The notes below the pieces were generated by a model that worked only from the letters and a program-made list of their open reading frames with translations, had not been told where the DNA came from and ran no database searches. From positions 8,448-72,447 of the forward strand of contig JAUVXW010000017.1 in the NCBI GenBank assembly GCA_030603385.1: a stretch of DNA of 64,000 nt, given 5' to 3'. This document shows positions 57,982 to 64,000 of this stretch, one piece after another. A program made the position numbers and the translations under genes. Every line of letters starts with the position of its first letter. Within the stretch, counting starts at the first letter, position 1. Origin of the DNA: Promethearchaeota archaeon. Lineage in GTDB: Archaea > Asgardarchaeota > Lokiarchaeia > Sigyniarchaeales > SOKP01.

Positions 57982-58566
57982 ATGAAAGTTGTTGTATTTA
58001 ATGGAAGTCCTAGGAACGAGGGTAATACACGTTTTTGTTTAAATATTGTAATGGATGAATTAAAAGCTGCTGGAATTGAAGTGGAATATGTTTGGATGGG
58101 TATGGATAAAATACAAGGATGTGTTTCTTGCTATCGTTGTGCACAAAATAGAGATAAGGAATGTTCAGTCAAAACAGATAAATTAAATGAATATCTAGCA
58201 AAAATGATTGAATCTGATGGGATCATATTAGGGTCACCAACTTATTTCGCGGATACAACCGCCAGAATGAAAGCATTGATAGAAAGAGCAGGTCTTGTAA
58301 GTAAGGTTAATGGTGATCTTCTAAAACATAAAGTTGGTGCCGCAGTAGTTTCTGTAAGACGAGCAGGAGCAACCCATGTTTATTCTAGTATCAATTATTT
58401 CTTCGGAATTAATAATATGTTTATAGTAGGATCAAGCTATTGGAACCTTGGCGTAAACCCGAACGTCATGAACCCTGAAGATATGGATAAAGATGGGGAA
58501 GGAAAGGTTACTTTTCAGAATTTAGGGAAAAATTTTGCTTATTTACTTCAAAAACTAGCCTCTTAA
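57982..58566 (+). CDS. Iron-sulfur flavoprotein (Isf)-like NADPH-dependent FMN reductase family protein
   Basis: MKVVVFNGSPRNEGNT flavodoxin-like start. Compact cluster motif GCVSCYRCAQNRDKEC (Cx2Cx2Cx7C), as in Isf. Confidence 0.7.
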   Translation: MKVVVFNGSPRNEGNTRFCLNIVMDELKAAGIEVEYVWMGMDKIQGCVSCYRCAQNRDKECSVKTDKLNEYLAKMIESDGIILGSPTYFADTTARMKALIERAGLVSKVNGDLLKHKVGAAVVSVRRAGATHVYSSINYFFGINNMFIVGSSYWNLGVNPNVMNPEDMDKDGEGKVTFQNLGKNFAYLLQKLAS

Positions 58567-58732
58567 TTTTAAAAATGCTAATTTTATTTTTAATAACTTT
58601 TTTTTTGTATTAACCTTTCATAACCAAAAGAATATGAGTACTTTTAAGTCGAAAAAAATCCAACCATTAACAGAAAGAACGGCTGGAGGGTTTATGACTC
58701 CTCTAAAGAACTGCTAACAATAAAAAATAGAT

Positions 58733-60268
58733 GTGGTTAAAATGAGTGAAAAAATGAATGTTTTGTTTATTATTACAGATGCTCAAAGAGTAGACCACCT
58801 AAGTTGTTATGGAAATAAAACATTAAAAACACCAAATATAGATAGGCTTGCGAGTGAGAGTGTAAGGTTCACAAACTATTTTTGTACCAATCCAATTTGT
58901 ATGCCTAACCGTGCAACTATGATTACTGGCCTTTATCCAAATGTTCATGGAGTTAGGAGTAATGGAATTAATTTAAAGGAAGATGTCCCAACTATTACAA
59001 AAACTCTTCGAAATAGAGGATGGCATACTGCAGCAATCGGAAAAATCCACCATCAGTTTTGGATGGCTCCGTTTAAACGCAAGTCATTATCAGCAGAAAA
59101 CCTAGCAAGTTGGGCACATCCGAAAGGTAGAAAAGATCCAGTAAGAGACAAATTTCCAAATCCTTATTATGGGTATGATGAAGTAGAAGTGGTCGTTGGA
59201 AATGGTAGCATATGCTCAGGACATTATATTGAATGGTTAGAAGAGAAATCTCCCAGTGTAGCAAAAGAAGTTAAAAAAAGATGCTTGAATTATGATTATT
59301 TGTTTAGTCTTTATTGTGATGACATACCAGAAGAGTATTATAACACAACCTATGTTAAAGAACGTACCCTCGCATTTTTAGAACGGTTTACAAAAGGTGA
59401 TTATGGAAACAAACCATTCTATCTACATTGTTCATTTCCAGATCCTCATTATCCAATAATTCCTCCCAAGAGTTTCCGAGAGATGTATAAACCTGAAGAT
59501 ATCGAGCTTCCGGTTAGTTTTAATGATATAGAGAAGTTATATAATCATAAATTTTTAGGGAAACATTTGAAAAACCCACCATTTAAGAAAGCGTTTTTGA
59601 GAGAATCAACGGAAGAAGAAGTGAGAAAGATTATTGCGTTAACATACGCTTCAGTTGCTTACGTTGATTATAATATTGGTCAAATTTTAGCATCTTTAGA
59701 AAAATTTGGTATTTCCGATAATACCATCGTAATTTATACTAGTGATCGCGGTGATTTAATGGGTGACCATGGGCTTTTATTTAAAGGTCCTTGCCCTTAT
59801 AATGGTGTATTACAATTACCTTTAATATGGAAGGTTCCTGGACTAACAAGACGGGGCGTTGCTTCAGATTCCTTGGTTAGTACGATTGATTATCCTAAAA
59901 CTATCTTACATCTATTAGGGATAAAAGAAAAGCACCATCCACCAGACATGCAAGGTTATGATATAACACCTATTTTAAAGAACCCCGAAACAAAAATACG
60001 CGATTGTTGCTTTATTGAGAATGATGAGGAAATAGGACCACTTAAGTCCCGATTACGTCATTTAATTACTGAGGATTATAAATTAACTATATATGAAGAT
60101 ATGCCCGGTTTCGGAGATATATATGATAGAAAAAATGACCCTGACGAATTAGAAAACCTTTGGTACAATAAGGAATTTAACGAAAAGAGATTTGAACTTG
60201 TTGATAAATTATTACATGAAAATCTCAAAGCTCAAACCCATTATCCAAAAAGAATTGCTGGAACTTAA
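58733..60268 (+). CDS. Cys-type sulfatase (arylsulfatase family)
   Basis: NVLFIITDAQRVDHL and the formylglycine target CMPNRATMITG (C-x-P-x-R). Downstream block YTSDRGDLMGDHG. Confidence 0.85.
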   Translation: MVKMSEKMNVLFIITDAQRVDHLSCYGNKTLKTPNIDRLASESVRFTNYFCTNPICMPNRATMITGLYPNVHGVRSNGINLKEDVPTITKTLRNRGWHTAAIGKIHHQFWMAPFKRKSLSAENLASWAHPKGRKDPVRDKFPNPYYGYDEVEVVVGNGSICSGHYIEWLEEKSPSVAKEVKKRCLNYDYLFSLYCDDIPEEYYNTTYVKERTLAFLERFTKGDYGNKPFYLHCSFPDPHYPIIPPKSFREMYKPEDIELPVSFNDIEKLYNHKFLGKHLKNPPFKKAFLRESTEEEVRKIIALTYASVAYVDYNIGQILASLEKFGISDNTIVIYTSDRGDLMGDHGLLFKGPCPYNGVLQLPLIWKVPGLTRRGVASDSLVSTIDYPKTILHLLGIKEKHHPPDMQGYDITPILKNPETKIRDCCFIENDEEIGPLKSRLRHLITEDYKLTIYEDMPGFGDIYDRKNDPDELENLWYNKEFNEKRFELVDKLLHENLKAQTHYPKRIAGT

Positions 60269-60280
60269 AAAAAATAGATT

Positions 60281-61564
60281 TTAGATTTTTTTTAATTCTC
60301 TTAATTTTTCCTTAATTTGCGTTGCAGCATTGTCAATAATATTTGCGGCTATGAATGAGGTTTCTTCTTTTGTTTTTTCTTTTAATATTCTAATTTTCAA
60401 ATTCAATGCTTCTAAGGTAGCTGCGCTCCGCTCATTTTCACTCCCTTTTATTATAACATCAAGCATATGTAAAGCCAATTGTAATTTTCCTTCATTGTAA
60501 AGACTCGTCGCGTGTTCTAGATATTTTTCTTCTGGGACGATTCTTATAAATTCTCTCGCAATGTCGTTTGATTTTGCGGGGAATAGATCAGTTGGATTTC
60601 CGCTATCATACCATCCATGATATAGTCTATAAGTTGCATGTATTGCAAAGCGATAACATCCATAGATCTCTCTTAAATGGTGGTGATTCTTAAATTTATC
60701 TGGGTAAATTTCGAGCATCTCATGATAAATTTGTTCAAACCACTTACCTTGATTCATTCTCTTAACCACTTCATCATGTACAAAATGCATGGCTTCTGCA
60801 GTACTCAAGAGCACATCTTTTACCTTTTCTTTACCCTCGATTAGTTGTCCATGACCGGGAACTAGATATTCCGCTTCTTTTTTCATCATTCTTTCCATAG
60901 CAATAGCCCAATCTTTTGGATAACGCTGTACTTTATATGGATTGCCAACATTAGGATATGAAGACACCATTAAATCTCCTGCACATATTAATTTCTTTTC
61001 AGGTGCCCACAACCAAATAGAATCATCAGTTTCTCCTTTATCATGATAAAGTTCAAAAGTACAATTACTTAATGTAAATGAATATGGTTCAGATCCTTTC
61101 ATTATAATTGTAGGATCAAGGGTTTCATGAGCAGAAACAACCATTTCTTGACGTTTTACACCTACTGACGCGAATTGTTGTTTGTTAAGCCAATCATGAT
61201 ATTTATCTAACATTCTGTATTTTTCAAATCTCTTTAATAAATTTTCATGGGCAATTATCTGGGGCATTTCCCAGCCTTTTTCTTTAATTTCAGTTATAAA
61301 AGGTTCATAAGCAAAGCAGTGATCAAAATGACCATGTGAATAGATAATGTATTTAACTTGTTTATTTGTAATTCCTCGAATTTCTCTAAATAGTCTGGGA
61401 CCAAACTGTTTTATTGGGAGATCAAATAATACTAGTCCACCTTCAGTTTCGATTACACCCGTGTTTCCCATTCCAGCAATTAAATGACATGTGTCATTCT
61501 CAAATGTAGCAGATTGGAACAAGCCAAACCAATCTCTCATACCACCAGACGTTTTTCTTACCAA
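60281..61564 (-). CDS. MBL-fold alkyl/aryl-sulfatase (SdsA1/BDS1-like)
   Basis: HxHxDH motif YSHGHFDHCF. Dimerisation-domain signature YRLYHGWYDSGNPTDL (compare GWYDGNPANL). TTG start; an ATG lies 8 codons in. Confidence 0.75.
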   Translation of the reverse strand: MVRKTSGGMRDWFGLFQSATFENDTCHLIAGMGNTGVIETEGGLVLFDLPIKQFGPRLFREIRGITNKQVKYIIYSHGHFDHCFAYEPFITEIKEKGWEMPQIIAHENLLKRFEKYRMLDKYHDWLNKQQFASVGVKRQEMVVSAHETLDPTIIMKGSEPYSFTLSNCTFELYHDKGETDDSIWLWAPEKKLICAGDLMVSSYPNVGNPYKVQRYPKDWAIAMERMMKKEAEYLVPGHGQLIEGKEKVKDVLLSTAEAMHFVHDEVVKRMNQGKWFEQIYHEMLEIYPDKFKNHHHLREIYGCYRFAIHATYRLYHGWYDSGNPTDLFPAKSNDIAREFIRIVPEEKYLEHATSLYNEGKLQLALHMLDVIIKGSENERSAATLEALNLKIRILKEKTKEETSFIAANIIDNAATQIKEKLRELKKI

Positions 61565-61797
61565 TTTAAATCAACTTCTTTTTCTGTATATCAAAAAATA
61601 GTTAAACTTTTTACATTATATTATAGAACATTTAATTTCAACATTTCGTTTCAAATTATTTTAAAAGTTCCTAAGAATAGAATCCATAAAGGAGCTATAA
61701 ATTTTTAAAACCAAAGTGTTATATATAATATTAGAATAAATTAATTAAAGACAGAATCGATTGCAATTATTAATTTTAAGTTATTTAAGAGAATAAA

Positions 61798-64000
61798 TTG
61801 GTTAATTATATTAAATTTAAACGAGAATTAGTTGCTTCATTCATTTTCATATTTCTTGCCATTGGTTTAATTCAATTCATACCATTCTCATATGCTCAAG
61901 ATAATGGTTTCTCTAATTATTCTAATTTTGAATTACACGAATATTCAGAAATTACTGAAGCAAAAGAAAATGTAACTTCTCTAAATATAGAATTCCCTGA
62001 GGTGAATTGGTCTATGACCGATATAGAAATAAATTTTACAGATATAGAATTAGAACGCGAAATAAAAACTATAGAGGACACAAAATTTGGCGATAATTAT
62101 ATATATAGGCAAAATAATGCTAAAAAAAGACTCGGTCTTGGATTACAACTTGAAATTACAGATCCCTCTATTCTATTTGGGGTATATATTAAGGGGGAAA
62201 GAAGCGACACAAATGAAACAATCCAATTTCAATTAAGAGGATATGATGAAGAGAATAATAAACCGAACAACACTATCTATAGAACAATGGAATTAAATAT
62301 ATCTGTCGACGATGGTTGGTATTATCAGAATTTCTCAGCGGACCCATATGAACTTCAAATAGGAAATTATTCATTAGTAATGCTTGGAGATGACTCTTTG
62401 AGTATCGCTTCAACATTTAGCTGGTTTTTAAATGAAATAAATCCTTCTATTCCAAATTTGCATACTTCTGAATATGTAAATTCGTGGAGTGATGGACTTG
62501 TAAACACCACTTTCCTATGTAAATTAAATCATAAAACTGAAAAAGTCTATTATCCCCAAGACATAAATATGAAAGTTGCTATAAATGGAGAAGAATATGA
62601 AATTATCAATGGACCTATTGTTGGATCGGGATTTATAGAAATACATAATGTATCTTATTTTCAGGACGATTACGTGTTAACTATACCAATTAAAAATAAT
62701 ATATCTGTAAGTTTGATTTTCAATTGCAATTATTCTGTTAATATAACAAATTCATTTTCATCTACAGGTTCTATTAAGATTGAAGAAAATTTGGATAATG
62801 TGTGGACAATGCTACCTGTATTTTCCAGAATCTCAAACAATTATTATGTTAAATTCGAATATCCAAAAAGCTGGTTCTATTTAACTGTTTATAGAAAATT
62901 AGGCGTAGGCTGGGAAAATATAACTTCACTCTTAGAAATTGATAAAGATAAAAACACCATTATTATTCCTAATAACACAATTCTGGATGGAGCTGAATGG
63001 AAAATTGAAGCAAATTCACCAAATATCAATTTTAATATAGAAATGACAAATACGGAATGGAAACGTGGAGATGAATTAGAATTTTCTGTTAACGCTCCGA
63101 TCACTCAAGGTAATCTTACTTTTATTATAATAAAACCAAGCGGTAAAGCAGAACTAATAGAAATAAAAGAAGCAGTTTCAGGACTAAACTTTTTTTCATT
63201 TGAAATCCCATCAAATTGGACCAAAGGAACTTATATTGGAGAAATATATTGGAATAATGAGACTGATGCTGGTATTCAAAGTGAACAATTCGAAATAAGT
63301 ATACCTCCTGTTCCATTTACAATGGACCCATGGATGATCTTTGCGATAATACTTATTACAGCAGGGATTTCAGTAGCGGGTATTATGTCTTACCGAACAA
63401 TTAAAACAATGAGAAACAAACAAGCAGAAAGAAAACAAAAACTCTATGATTCATGTATAGATATCTTAAATTTAGATTATATAATGGTAACGGACAAAAA
63501 ATCTGGTTTAAATGTTTATACACAAAGTTTCGTAGAGAAAGCAATCGATGCGTCATTAATATCTGGATTTTTACAAGCAATCCATTCGTTTGGAATTGAA
63601 TTAATCAAGGTTGAAGATCAATCTCAAACAATAAAATTAGAATATAAAGATTCAATTATCTTAATGAGCGAGTTCGTTAATATTAGAATAATATTAATAA
63701 TGAAAGAAAGGCCATCAAGATTCTTCTTATATTCAATTGAAGAATTAGCTTATGATATCTATAAAAATTACGGAAATTTGATCGATACCTTTAACGGAGA
63801 TGTAAAGCCTTTTCATTCAATTGAGGCTTTACTTAAACAGCATTTAAATGTATCTTTTGTATATCCTTTAAGAATTGCTCAAATTGAAAAGCTTGAGAAA
63901 ATTAGAATTACCCAAAGTGAAAGATTGTATATCAATAAAGTAGTATCATTAATGAAAACTAAAAATATGAATCATTTTTACATAAAATCATTATTACCTG
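61798..64000 (+). CDS. Partial CDS (3' end outside the window), absent from the ORF track: type-I-like membrane protein with a large sequon-rich ectodomain, one TM and a cytoplasmic longin/roadblock-like domain
   Basis: I translated every line from 61801 to 64000 in this frame and found no stop. TTG start at 61798 follows an in-frame TAA (61786-61788). N-terminal hydrophobic segment LVASFIFIFLAIGLIQFIPFSYA. About 20 N-x-S/T sequons. TM WMIFAIILITAGISVAGIMSY (about 63331-63393). The cytoplasmic part is YIMVTDKKSGLNVYTQSF...LISGFLQAIHSFGIELI...IKLEYKDSIILMSEFVNIRIILIMKE.... Confidence 0.75.
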   Translation, partial: MVNYIKFKRELVASFIFIFLAIGLIQFIPFSYAQDNGFSNYSNFELHEYSEITEAKENVTSLNIEFPEVNWSMTDIEINFTDIELEREIKTIEDTKFGDNYIYRQNNAKKRLGLGLQLEITDPSILFGVYIKGERSDTNETIQFQLRGYDEENNKPNNTIYRTMELNISVDDGWYYQNFSADPYELQIGNYSLVMLGDDSLSIASTFSWFLNEINPSIPNLHTSEYVNSWSDGLVNTTFLCKLNHKTEKVYYPQDINMKVAINGEEYEIINGPIVGSGFIEIHNVSYFQDDYVLTIPIKNNISVSLIFNCNYSVNITNSFSSTGSIKIEENLDNVWTMLPVFSRISNNYYVKFEYPKSWFYLTVYRKLGVGWENITSLLEIDKDKNTIIIPNNTILDGAEWKIEANSPNINFNIEMTNTEWKRGDELEFSVNAPITQGNLTFIIIKPSGKAELIEIKEAVSGLNFFSFEIPSNWTKGTYIGEIYWNNETDAGIQSEQFEISIPPVPFTMDPWMIFAIILITAGISVAGIMSYRTIKTMRNKQAERKQKLYDSCIDILNLDYIMVTDKKSGLNVYTQSFVEKAIDASLISGFLQAIHSFGIELIKVEDQSQTIKLEYKDSIILMSEFVNIRIILIMKERPSRFFLYSIEELAYDIYKNYGNLIDTFNGDVKPFHSIEALLKQHLNVSFVYPLRIAQIEKLEKIRITQSERLYINKVVSLMKTKNMNHFYIKSLLP

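Follow-up and report, generated by a model that had tools for sequence, protein, structure and literature searches.

Longin-domain proteins of Asgard archaea were reportedly described by Klinger et al. in 2016. Those treated by Tran et al. 2024 (PMC10933270) include longin-GTPase fusions, and the same paper gives the longin order of elements as β-β-α-β-β-β-α-α, with a minimal domain that has no N-terminal helix, and presents longin and roadblock dimers as platforms for small GTPases, a role that it attributes to Levine 2013. The longin fold is one that eukaryotes use for docking small GTPase switches. Some longin domains, such as those of SNAREs and of adaptor sigma subunits, are not known to act on GTPases. 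Asgard genomes encode small GTPases by the dozen, along with numerous longin and roadblock proteins, and gene order gives few clues to what these switches sense or how they reach the membrane (PMC10933270). The cells are wall-less and crawl over surfaces by means of actin, and their membrane is studded with unidentified proteins (bioRxiv 10.1101/2025.11.30.690169). A transmembrane form of the Asgard longin is mentioned neither in PMC10933270 nor in the other literature searched, the coverage of which is incomplete, and a search of full-text literature, likewise incomplete in coverage, found no description of a transmembrane longin family.

The window analysed here is a stretch of 64,000 nucleotides from a Lokiarchaeia-type Asgard archaeon. 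At its 3' end lies a gene for a protein of 758 amino acids, which is predicted to be a surface glycoprotein with a longin-type cytoplasmic tail. The features of the locus are as follows.

61720..61729, + strand: TATA-like string TATATATAAT, seen in the sequence; candidate promoter only
61798..64000, + strand: coding sequence of the 758-aa protein, with a TTG start and its 3' end beyond the window
61897..63327, + strand: all-β ectodomain of several β-sandwich domains, residues 34-510 (AF2, sequon scan)
61798..61896, + strand: signal peptide or signal anchor, residues 1-33 (hydropathy, family consensus, AF2)
63328..63396, + strand: single transmembrane helix, residues 511-533 (hydropathy scan; within AF2 helix 511-557)
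63397..63468, + strand: basic juxtamembrane stalk helix, residues 534-557 (family consensus, AF2, conservation)
63469..63855, + strand: longin-type α/β domain, residues 558-686 (AF2, Foldseek, hhalign, conservation)
63856..64000, + strand: helical, tentatively winged-helix-like C-terminal unit, residues 687-734 of 687-758, cut by the window end (AF2)

The + strand frame is open from 61789, directly after a TAA stop at 61786-88, and its first start codon is the TTG at 61798, from which 734 codons run open to base 64000. On the genome contig the frame continues for another 24 codons and closes at a normal stop, giving 758 aa and an overhang of 74 nt past the window (stop end at window-equivalent position 64074; G000:C44:70245-72521). 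The initial annotation had read a long stop-free coding sequence from this strand and had proposed extending the contig to obtain its 3' end, and both proved sound. It was also right that the only other ORFs listed across the region are two short antisense ones (62889-63104 and 63125-63316); the coding sequence is absent from the ORF track because the track omits ORFs running off the window end, which is not biology. TATATATAAT lies about 70 nt upstream of the TTG, inside a divergent intergenic region of 233 nt. Strings of this TATA-like kind are commonplace at the 30% G+C of the genome.

One search recovered 311 homologues of matching length at E<=1e-3, Asgard genomes hold 152 confirmed homologous stretches, and every named family member seen comes from an Asgard metagenome-assembled genome (MAG). 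The TTG start, the absence of a Pfam match and a frame still open at the window end might suggest a pseudogene or a frame left open by chance in AT-rich DNA, but this reading is refuted by these homologues and Asgard stretches, by the normal closure of the frame 24 codons on and by confident AF2 models. Conservation that differs by region also speaks against it, and it retains next to no credibility. The gene is a real, conserved gene of Asgard archaea, and it is clearly under selection, given the 311 homologues and the occurrence of its tail module in 1297 cluster representatives.

The protein has the layout of a type I single-pass surface glycoprotein, with a predicted signal peptide, an all-β ectodomain of about 480 aa, one transmembrane helix, a helical stalk and a cytoplasmic cassette of about 225 aa. 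An order of signal or anchor, sequon-rich ectodomain, single transmembrane helix and cytoplasmic domain had been read from the letters beforehand, and the hydropathy scan and sequon counts agree with it. The N-terminus has a basic n-region (KFKR) and, in the hydropathy scan, is hydrophobic within residues 10-33, with its core at 10-30; cleavage is predicted between A and Q of S-Y-A-Q, where the family consensus keeps FSxAQ, and the AF2 model has a helix at 2-27 and then low confidence over residues 28-35. The hydropathy scan finds the transmembrane segment 511-533 to be followed by a basic stretch. The stalk helix ends in an invariant C553-x-D555 motif and leads straight into strand 1 of the tail.

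The ectodomain is modelled with an AF2 pLDDT of mostly 85-93. It contains 19 N-x-S/T sequons, compared with 7.4±2.4 expected (0 of 2000 shuffles reached 19), while the cytoplasmic part has 1 against 1.2 expected; the densities are 3.8 per 100 aa outside and 0.7 inside. Eight of the 19 ectodomain sequons are kept in at least 30 of 42 relatives, N79 in 40, N167 in 41 and N487 in 39. N-glycosylation of the ectodomain is plausible, since the sequons are enriched and positionally conserved and an STT3/AglB gene is present. A Pfam search found no match for the ectodomain, and Foldseek with the whole model returned no specific ectodomain family, just generic Ig, FN3, macroglobulin and phage-baseplate β-sandwich arrays at TM<=0.2. 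The role of sensor given to the protein in the initial annotation is so far not supported, as the ectodomain resembles such generic arrays only. Searched against Pfam at full length and as separate ectodomain and tail, the protein yielded chance-level matches only, to ComA (0.028) and DUF6152 (0.085).

The tail is modelled by AF2 with a pLDDT of 83.9 and a pTM of 0.75. Its elements are strands at 559-566 and 572-577, a helix at 585-599, strands at 610-616, 619-626 and 629-635, and helices at 641-663 and 674-683, so that the domain runs β-β-α-β-β-β-α, followed by an F-x-G motif and a short helix. All of the segments from which a longin-type fold had originally been proposed coincide with modelled elements, namely the strands YIMVTD (559-566), LNVYTQSF (572-577), IKLEY (610-616), IILMSEF (619-626) and IRIILIMKE (629-635) and the helices LISGFLQAIHSFGIELI (585-599) and FFLYSIEELAYDIYKNYG (641-663). 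Foldseek against the PDB gives 28 matches to the tail at E<=1e-3, and every identifiable one is a longin or roadblock protein: SEDL (1.3e-4), AP sigma, zeta-COP, LAMTOR/MP1-p14, VAMP7, Mon1 and MglB, the roadblock proteins being interleaved with the longin proteins. Sec22b falls just short of the threshold (E 2e-3). Target-normalised TM-scores of the matches reach 0.65 (Sec22b, TMt 0.65).

Direct profile searches are silent on the tail. Of the longin class in Pfam, which includes PF13774, PF19036, PF19031, PF01217 and PF04628, no family matches it at E<=10, nor does a roadblock family, so that the profile check which had been suggested for it yields nothing above cut-off with Longin, Fuz_longin_1 or Robl_LC7 (PF03259). 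Genome scans with PF13774 and PF19036 do not match the module loci, and Intu_longin_1 weakly matches one of 61 family members (E 0.07). Profile-profile comparison by hhalign aligns the tail with the soluble longin-like proteins of the same genome at a probability of 97.4% (E 1.5e-11, score 68.6), the highest score among 30 column-shuffled controls being 20.6. One of these soluble proteins, C53, passes the Pfam cut-off for PF19036 Fuz_longin_1 (28.7 bits against 26.1), C24 scores 25.3 bits, and a further one forms the N-domain of a fusion with an Arf-like GTPase. The tail shows the longin order of elements, has its closest solved structures among longin proteins, with roadblock proteins interleaved, and is homologous at profile level to a protein that passes PF19036. 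By sequence comparison the tail and the genome's soluble longin-like proteins form one family, and AF2, Foldseek and hhalign together support a longin-type fold, as first suggested. Sequence searches of the PDB matched bS6m (0.058, single sequence) and Ssr1698 (0.017, profile, 54 residues), and both are treated as chance because they are at odds with the fold result.

The interleaved Foldseek matches, with LAMTOR/MP1-p14 and MglB among them, bear on a second reading, in which the tail is a roadblock/LC7 domain of the MglB/LAMTOR type that takes the juxtamembrane helix as its helix 1 and acts like a membrane-bound MglB or Ragulator. With the stalk included, the order becomes α-β-β-α-β-β-β-α, which is the roadblock order given in PMC10933270, and hhalign aligns the tail in register with the genome's canonical roadblock proteins (34-43%, E 2.5e-4 to 4e-4, score 27-28, shuffle maximum 14.6). 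However, the longin-like match is far stronger (97%, E 1.5e-11), and Robl_LC7, which exceeds its cut-off in 14 genes of the genome, does so at none of the module loci and does not match the tail. The minimal soluble relatives (133-135 aa) begin at strand 1 and, in keeping with the longin order, finish once a second C-terminal helix has been passed. The modelled stalk is continuous with the transmembrane helix (511-557) and separated from strand 1 by one residue, which gives it little space for bending back onto the sheet. On element order, hit lists and hhalign we prefer the longin assignment, and consider a roadblock domain quite unlikely.

Among longins, a GAP type would also be conceivable. 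The GAP longins comprise FLCN, SMCR8, C9orf72 and NPRL2 and an Asgard longin class for which a GAP-type GP motif and an arginine finger are reported (PMC12290439), and a tail of the folliculin/SMCR8/NPRL2 class might, at the membrane, inactivate a GTPase of the Arf or Rag type. R630 is invariant in the family, but the GP motif before strand 2 is missing: S569 (42/42), G570 (41/42) and L/I571 (42/42) stand there without a proline, and folliculin, SMCR8 and NPRL2 are absent from the best 50 Foldseek matches. The GAP reading is rejected because of the missing motif and keeps only a very small probability.

Behind the longin-type domain, AF2 models helices at 706-721 and 740-751 and a strand at 755-757. 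APAF-1-like_WHD matches weakly in six of 61 family members (best E 5.7e-4), and the soluble relative C39 has weak HTH_47/TrmB matches at the corresponding place. We tentatively regard this C-terminal unit as winged-helix-like.

Conservation within the protein is highest in the longin domain, where mean pairwise identity is 68%, as compared with 42% in the ectodomain. Of 201 genomes sampled from the phylum, 185 carry the tail module, as do 84 of the 85 high-quality ones, in frames 250-2257 aa long; the 1297 cluster representatives hold it C-terminally in every case, and the window's own genome has 25 ORFs with the module or its longin half. The cassette is accordingly a phylum-wide module joined to many unrelated ectodomains. 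The adjacent downstream gene (G000:C44:72696-74900) encodes a partner that is 54% identical to the target in the longin domain and 36% in the ectodomain. The tandem copies fall into two clades, clade A holding the upstream tandem copies in 17 of 21 cases and clade B the downstream copies in 19 of 21, which marks the target (clade A) and its neighbour (clade B) as an old duplicate pair retained in tandem. Across 75 related loci the recurrent neighbours are a sulfatase, an alkylsulfatase, an FMN reductase, TauE and an unannotated 4-TM protein, and 24 of them have a gene with a gelsolin domain at a distance of a few genes downstream. Neither a GTPase nor a roadblock gene is among the conserved neighbours of these loci.

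The initial annotation had also suggested that the protein could be coupled to the products of small-GTPase, longin and roadblock genes elsewhere in the window. Gene linkage does not support this. About 85 genes of the window's genome encode small Arf/Rab/Rag-like GTPases and at least 14 encode canonical roadblock proteins, and the GTPase gene closest to the target is about 22 kb away. No small-GTPase gene is found within 5 kb of any full-module gene of this genome; the nearest ones are 7.8-25 kb from module genes, and the chance of one at 5 kb or less is about 20%. In a distant family of the phylum a GTPase gene lies within about 4 kb of three of 12 module genes, in an inconsistent arrangement, which is at chance level. 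We infer a possible GTPase link on other grounds, since longin and roadblock platforms elsewhere have one and since the soluble relatives in the genome include one longin-Arf fusion and one operon-like pair, in which a longin gene is immediately followed by a GTPase gene.

By analogy with these platforms, and with the pairing of longin and roadblock domains already known, two tails would join by their longin domains into a dimer, either homotypic or of A with B. Fixed to the membrane, this dimer would be a platform for recruiting or regulating a partner in the cytoplasm, most probably a member of the genome's set of roughly 85 small GTPases, and whatever the ectodomain binds outside, be it a surface, a partner cell or a polymer, would thereby be tied to a switch inside. 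That dimerised, membrane-fixed longin tails link ectodomain binding to an internal switch is in our judgement an evenly balanced proposition. A more specific version appears rather unlikely. It has clade A and clade B forming a heterodimeric transmembrane receptor, the paired longins of which would offer an Asgard Arf/Rab-like GTPase a platform resembling an exchange factor, much as Mon1-Ccz1 or Fuzzy-Inturned do, and would couple surface contact to Lokiactin-driven protrusion and crawling. If true, a prokaryote would have a pathway from receptor to small GTPase, in which the eukaryotic longin-based GEF complexes might have their forerunner.

The missing linkage to GTPase genes, in the window's genome and at the 12 loci of the distant family, would suit an adhesin or surface-coat glycoprotein, the longin and winged-helix-like tail of which just anchors, sorts or clusters it without control of a GTPase. 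Through such a tail the protein might be attached to the Lokiactin cytoskeleton, to cell protrusions or to further longin or roadblock proteins, and the gelsolin-domain gene downstream in 24 of the 75 related loci is in keeping with this. The ectodomain resembles the β-sandwich arrays of adhesins, receptors and phage fibres, giant repeat proteins of 1389 and 2247 aa bear the same tail in this genome, and membrane proteins of the wall-less, surface-crawling Asgard cells may serve contacts or adhesion (bioRxiv 10.1101/2025.11.30.690169). However, the conservation of the tail exceeds what a simple anchor would require, its closest sequence relatives include the longin-GTPase fusion and the longin gene that immediately precedes a GTPase gene, and profilin, an actin-binding relative of the fold, is absent from the best 50 Foldseek matches. 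An adhesin without GTPase control is possible, though we doubt it; it overlaps with the preferred reading of a platform for an internal switch, because an adhesion receptor could recruit a GTPase too.

With diverse ectodomains on one conserved longin cassette, this phylum-wide family provides named candidates for a link between surface and switch, and may show how Asgard archaea connect the cell surface to their internal switches. Small and predicted with confidence to fold, the tail could be tried in recombinant expression and used as bait for the organism's GTPases. If the link is true, receptor-coupled small-GTPase signalling at the membrane would be older than eukaryotes; if it is false, the family remains a strong candidate for the surface proteins of Asgard cryo-tomograms.

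Compared with the Asgard longin proteins already described, the tail is of the same sequence family (hhalign 97%, E 1.5e-11) and fold. Those proteins are soluble or fused to a GTPase, whereas the longin here is predicted to be the cytoplasmic tail of a single-pass surface glycoprotein and, unlike them, is followed by a winged-helix-like unit. The tri-longin RabGEFs Mon1-Ccz1, Fuzzy-Inturned and HPS1-HPS4, the first longin domains of which are Pfam PF19036 and PF19031, are related through the soluble member of the tail's family that passes PF19036, although the tail itself is not matched, and through Mon1 (7qla_A) and a CPLANE subunit (7q3d_C) among the Foldseek matches. They are heterodimers of paralogous longin proteins working at membranes, and here two old paralogues are kept in tandem (17/21, 19/21). 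Their subunits have three longin domains each, whereas the tail has one and a winged-helix-like unit, in what is predicted to be an integral membrane protein with a large ectodomain.

In Ragulator (LAMTOR1-5) with the Rags, and in bacterial MglB with MglA, dimers of roadblock fold keep a small GTPase at a membrane or control it there. Foldseek matches the tail to chains of LAMTOR and of MglB, and profile similarity to roadblock proteins is weak and in register, but Robl_LC7 does not match and the longin topology fits the tail better. Ragulator is held at its membrane by lipidated LAMTOR1 and MglB by a basic patch, whereas a transmembrane helix with an ectodomain would do so here. The longin SNAREs Sec22b, VAMP7 and Ykt6 are also membrane proteins with a cytosolic longin and give the best target-normalised TM-scores (0.64-0.65). 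They are tail-anchored, running from longin through SNARE helix to C-terminal transmembrane segment without an ectodomain, whereas the order here is ectodomain, transmembrane helix and longin, and neither AF2 nor hydropathy places a SNARE-like long helix or a second transmembrane segment after the longin of the 758-aa protein. A prokaryotic precedent for a membrane sensor that works with a roadblock-fold protein and a small GTPase is the conservon of Streptomyces, which consists of the membrane sensor CvnA, the roadblock protein CvnB, CvnC and the small GTPase CvnD. The parts of the conservon are separate proteins of one operon and its sensor resembles a histidine kinase, whereas the protein described here, which has no GTPase operon, carries its longin domain fused to the membrane protein itself.

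The initial annotation had proposed a long + strand coding sequence at the end of the window, in a region where the ORF track listed only short antisense frames. An ORF listing with open ends recovered this frame from TTG 61798 to the last window base (734 codons); two short antisense ORFs, and no others, lie over the region. A TAA stop is located at 61786-88, and TTG 61798 is the sole start codon before the hydrophobic core. In the contig (JAUVXW010000017.1, here C44 of the window's own genome, G000, with the window at G000:C44:8448-72447) the frame ends normally 24 codons beyond the window, giving a 758-aa protein. The gene was absent from the track because its frame runs off the window end, which is no biological oddity. 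The gene is genuine and well conserved. One search returned 311 homologues, nearly all of 740-780 aa and all unnamed or labelled hypothetical, with every named one coming from an Asgard MAG.

The topology suggested earlier, a signal or anchor followed by a sequon-rich ectodomain, a single transmembrane segment and a cytoplasmic domain, was borne out by hydropathy, sequon shuffling and AlphaFold2. The hydropathy scan marked residues 10-33 and residues 511-533 as hydrophobic. The N-terminal segment ends in S-Y-A↓Q, where the family consensus is FSxAQ, and this fits a cleaved signal peptide. Between the two segments are 19 N-x-S/T sequons, compared with 7.4±2.4 in 2000 shuffles, while a single sequon lies in the cytoplasmic part (1.2 expected). 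When 42 relatives were compared, 8 of the sequons were conserved in position in at least 30 sequences (among them N79 in 40/42, N167 in 41/42 and N487 in 39/42), and sequon density per 100 aa was 3.8 outside the membrane versus 0.7 inside. Glycosylation of the ectodomain is plausible because the sequons are enriched and position-conserved and the genome has an STT3/AglB gene. This sole STT3/AglB match (G000:C4:247610-248809, +) lies inside an unusually long 1309-aa open frame.

The full-length AlphaFold2 model (pLDDT 81) has an all-beta ectodomain at residues 38-501 (pLDDT mostly 85-93), followed by one helix (511-557) that crosses the membrane, continues as a stalk and leads into the cytoplasmic cassette. 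A Pfam search of the protein gave no match. Whole-model Foldseek matches were confined to generic beta-sandwich arrays, none above TM 0.2, from phage baseplate proteins, complement macroglobulin domains, FN3, adhesin repeats and Ig receptors; the modelled ectodomain therefore looks like that of an adhesin or receptor, of no nameable family.

The cytoplasmic cassette comprises a longin-type domain and a small C-terminal unit. It was modelled from an alignment of 61 tails drawn from the window's own genome and 75 related loci (pLDDT 83.9, pTM 0.75). The order of elements is stalk helix, two strands, helix, three main strands, long helix and a smaller helical unit, with a strand of three residues (69-71 of the tail) preceding the first of the three main strands. 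Every secondary structure segment read from the sequence in the initial annotation coincides with an element of the model. Foldseek against the PDB gave 28 matches at E<=1e-3, and all identifiable ones had a longin or roadblock fold (SEDL, AP sigma subunits, zeta-COP, LAMTOR/MP1-p14, VAMP7, Mon1 and MglB); Sec22b fell just beyond the threshold at E 2e-3. The highest target-normalised TM-scores in this search were 0.65. The earlier structural reading was accurate. The last ~70 residues are tentatively a winged helix, with weak APAF-1-like_WHD matches in 6/61 family members and weak HTH_47/TrmB matches at the same position in a soluble relative. Two cytoplasmic cysteines are conserved: C553 (window 63454-63456), at the junction of stalk and strand 1, in 42/42 sequences, and C738 of the C-terminal unit, 11 nt past the window end, in 41/42. 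A metal site, a redox role and lipidation are possibilities for these residues.

The tail had been described as longin- or roadblock-like. No curated longin or roadblock profile matched the loci encoding the module: the genome scan with Robl_LC7 found 14 genes over the cut-off, none of them at a module locus, and scans with Longin and Fuz_longin_1 did not match these loci; the longin-type module of this protein is unannotated by Pfam. The link came from profile-profile comparison with soluble longin-like proteins. A broader module profile found, in the window's genome, small soluble proteins of 133-280 aa, multi-pass membrane proteins with a C-terminal longin-like domain, and a fusion of a longin-like domain to an Arf-like GTPase (C40:2790-3689, -, 300 aa). 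Two of the small soluble proteins match Pfam Fuz_longin_1, the first longin domain of FUZ/MON1/HPS1, one at 28.7 bits, exceeding the cut-off of 26.1, and the other at 25.3 bits. By hhalign, the membrane-family tail alone matched nine soluble domains with a probability of 97.4% and E 1.5e-11 (score 68.6; the highest shuffle score was 20.6). Alignment of the tail to the genome's canonical roadblock proteins was in register but weak (probability 34-43%, E 2.5e-4 to 4e-4; score 27-28, with 30 column shuffles reaching at most 14.6), and the soluble set reached only 81% and E 1.3e-5 against them. The minimal soluble members start at strand 1 and end in two helices, matching the longin order as defined in PMC10933270. 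In the AlphaFold2 model of the membrane protein the stalk helix is continuous with the transmembrane helix, and strand 1 follows after a single residue. On the hhalign result, the element order and this continuity, the tail domain is predicted to be longin-type, with a distant relationship to roadblock.

When 1.84 billion cluster representatives were searched exhaustively with the profile, 1297 proteins proved to carry the module at E<=1e-3; in all listed matches it is C-terminal, on host proteins of 112-1468 aa. The module occurs in 185 of 201 sampled genomes of the phylum, including 84/85 high-quality ones, at 1-13 matches per genome. The ~760-aa form is limited, among these 201, to the window's own family and one genome of its order. 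The named distant members looked up belong to Promethearchaeota, Helarchaeota or Hodarchaeota and are annotated as hypothetical or "Ig-like domain-containing". In the window's genome four proteins have the 760-aa form with the full module, which is also found on three single-pass proteins with unrelated ectodomains (729, 1389 and 2247 aa) and on soluble proteins. Mean pairwise identity is 68% in the longin domain, 51% in the C-terminal unit and 42% in the ectodomain; by this measure, family conservation is highest inside the cell.

Several relatives differ in architecture. Two ~460-aa proteins (G000:C7:2684-4081, +; G000:C12:30336-31715, +) carry the full cassette without an obvious transmembrane segment, set between a Cys-rich N-terminus (C-x-n-C pairs) and a C-terminal region of helical repeats with a weak MIT-domain match. 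Two multi-pass proteins (G000:C42:17046-19286, +, 747 aa; G000:C8:15821-17443, -, 541 aa) end in a longin-like domain without the winged-helix unit, so the longin tail is not limited to single-pass proteins. The 2247-aa protein (G000:C50:23539-30279, +), sequon-rich and repetitive, has a transmembrane segment, the cassette and, after it, ~200 further helical, coiled-coil-like residues; it is a candidate giant adhesin.

A second family gene lies just outside the window:

G000:C44:72696-74900 (equivalent to L001 3898-5202 and L004 2-2134), + strand, tandem paralogue of ~747 aa

It starts ~120 nt after the stop of the first gene and has the same architecture; the end of the contig follows directly. 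Identity between the two proteins is 54% for the longin domain but 36% for the ectodomain, and most related loci have the tandem arrangement. A maximum-likelihood tree built from 112 proteins placed 17/21 upstream copies in one clade with the window's gene (clade A, SH-aLRT 100) and 19/21 downstream copies in a separate clade with its neighbour (clade B), the exceptions being recent local duplications. The tree indicates an old pair kept together, and the A/B pairing would be compatible with a heterodimer.

The surroundings are partly conserved. Window 57982-61564 and related loci L007-L081 share an island that mixes family genes with a cytoplasmic Cys-type sulfatase, an MBL-fold alkylsulfatase and an FMN reductase, joined in some genomes by a TauE sulfite-exporter-like protein. 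A sulfatase or alkylsulfatase is the immediate neighbour in 31/75 loci and within two genes in 38/75; this may be inherited synteny, or the ectodomains may deal with sulfated polymers. In 35/75 loci the next gene downstream of the family gene(s), convergent with them, encodes a ~195-aa unannotated membrane protein with apparently four hydrophobic segments and no Pfam match (for example L031 6266-6853, -); in the window's genome the contig ends before the place where it would lie. A gelsolin-repeat gene (for example L066 4715-5560, -; Pfam Gelsolin, E 1.2e-6) lies 2-5 genes downstream of family genes in 24/75 loci. Gelsolins regulate Lokiactin, and the proximity is probably synteny.

The initial annotation had also envisaged coupling to GTPase, longin and roadblock genes elsewhere in the window, and here the locus gave no support. 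The genome has ~85 small-GTPase genes. Every full-module gene in this genome is more than 5 kb from the nearest of them, at distances of 7.8-25 kb (~22 kb for the gene described here); of random 2.3-kb intervals, 20% had a GTPase gene within 5 kb. The conserved neighbours of this gene are metabolic or unknown. In a distant family of the phylum (12 loci) a GTPase gene occurred within ~4 kb in 3/12, in an inconsistent arrangement and no better than chance. The only physical longin-GTPase links found for the tail's subfamily in the window's genome are the C40 fusion and a pair at a contig end (G000:C57:45082-46496, -), where the gene for a 257-aa longin-like protein lies, in the same orientation, 92 nt upstream of that for a 184-aa small GTPase. 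The negative synteny only weakens the coupling idea, because in Asgard archaea GTPase genes are generally not found in one operon with roadblock or longin genes (PMC10933270). We infer any GTPase coupling of this protein from family behaviour and analogy, not from the locus, and put the chance that the longin tail serves as a GTPase platform at about even. A pure adhesin or anchor role appears less likely.

No published account of a membrane-anchored longin family turned up in a literature search of incomplete coverage. What this analysis contributes on the tail family is the bridge of Fuz/Mon1 type, the division into clades A and B, the count across the phylum and two synteny tests with a negative outcome. 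GAP longins require a GP motif before strand 2 (PMC12290439); the family has S-G-L/I there, and this assignment was rejected. Against the three longin domains of tri-longin GEFs, this protein has a single one. Longin SNAREs are tail-anchored and carry a SNARE helix, whereas here the order is reversed and the SNARE helix is lacking. Ragulator and MglB are functional analogies only to the tail.
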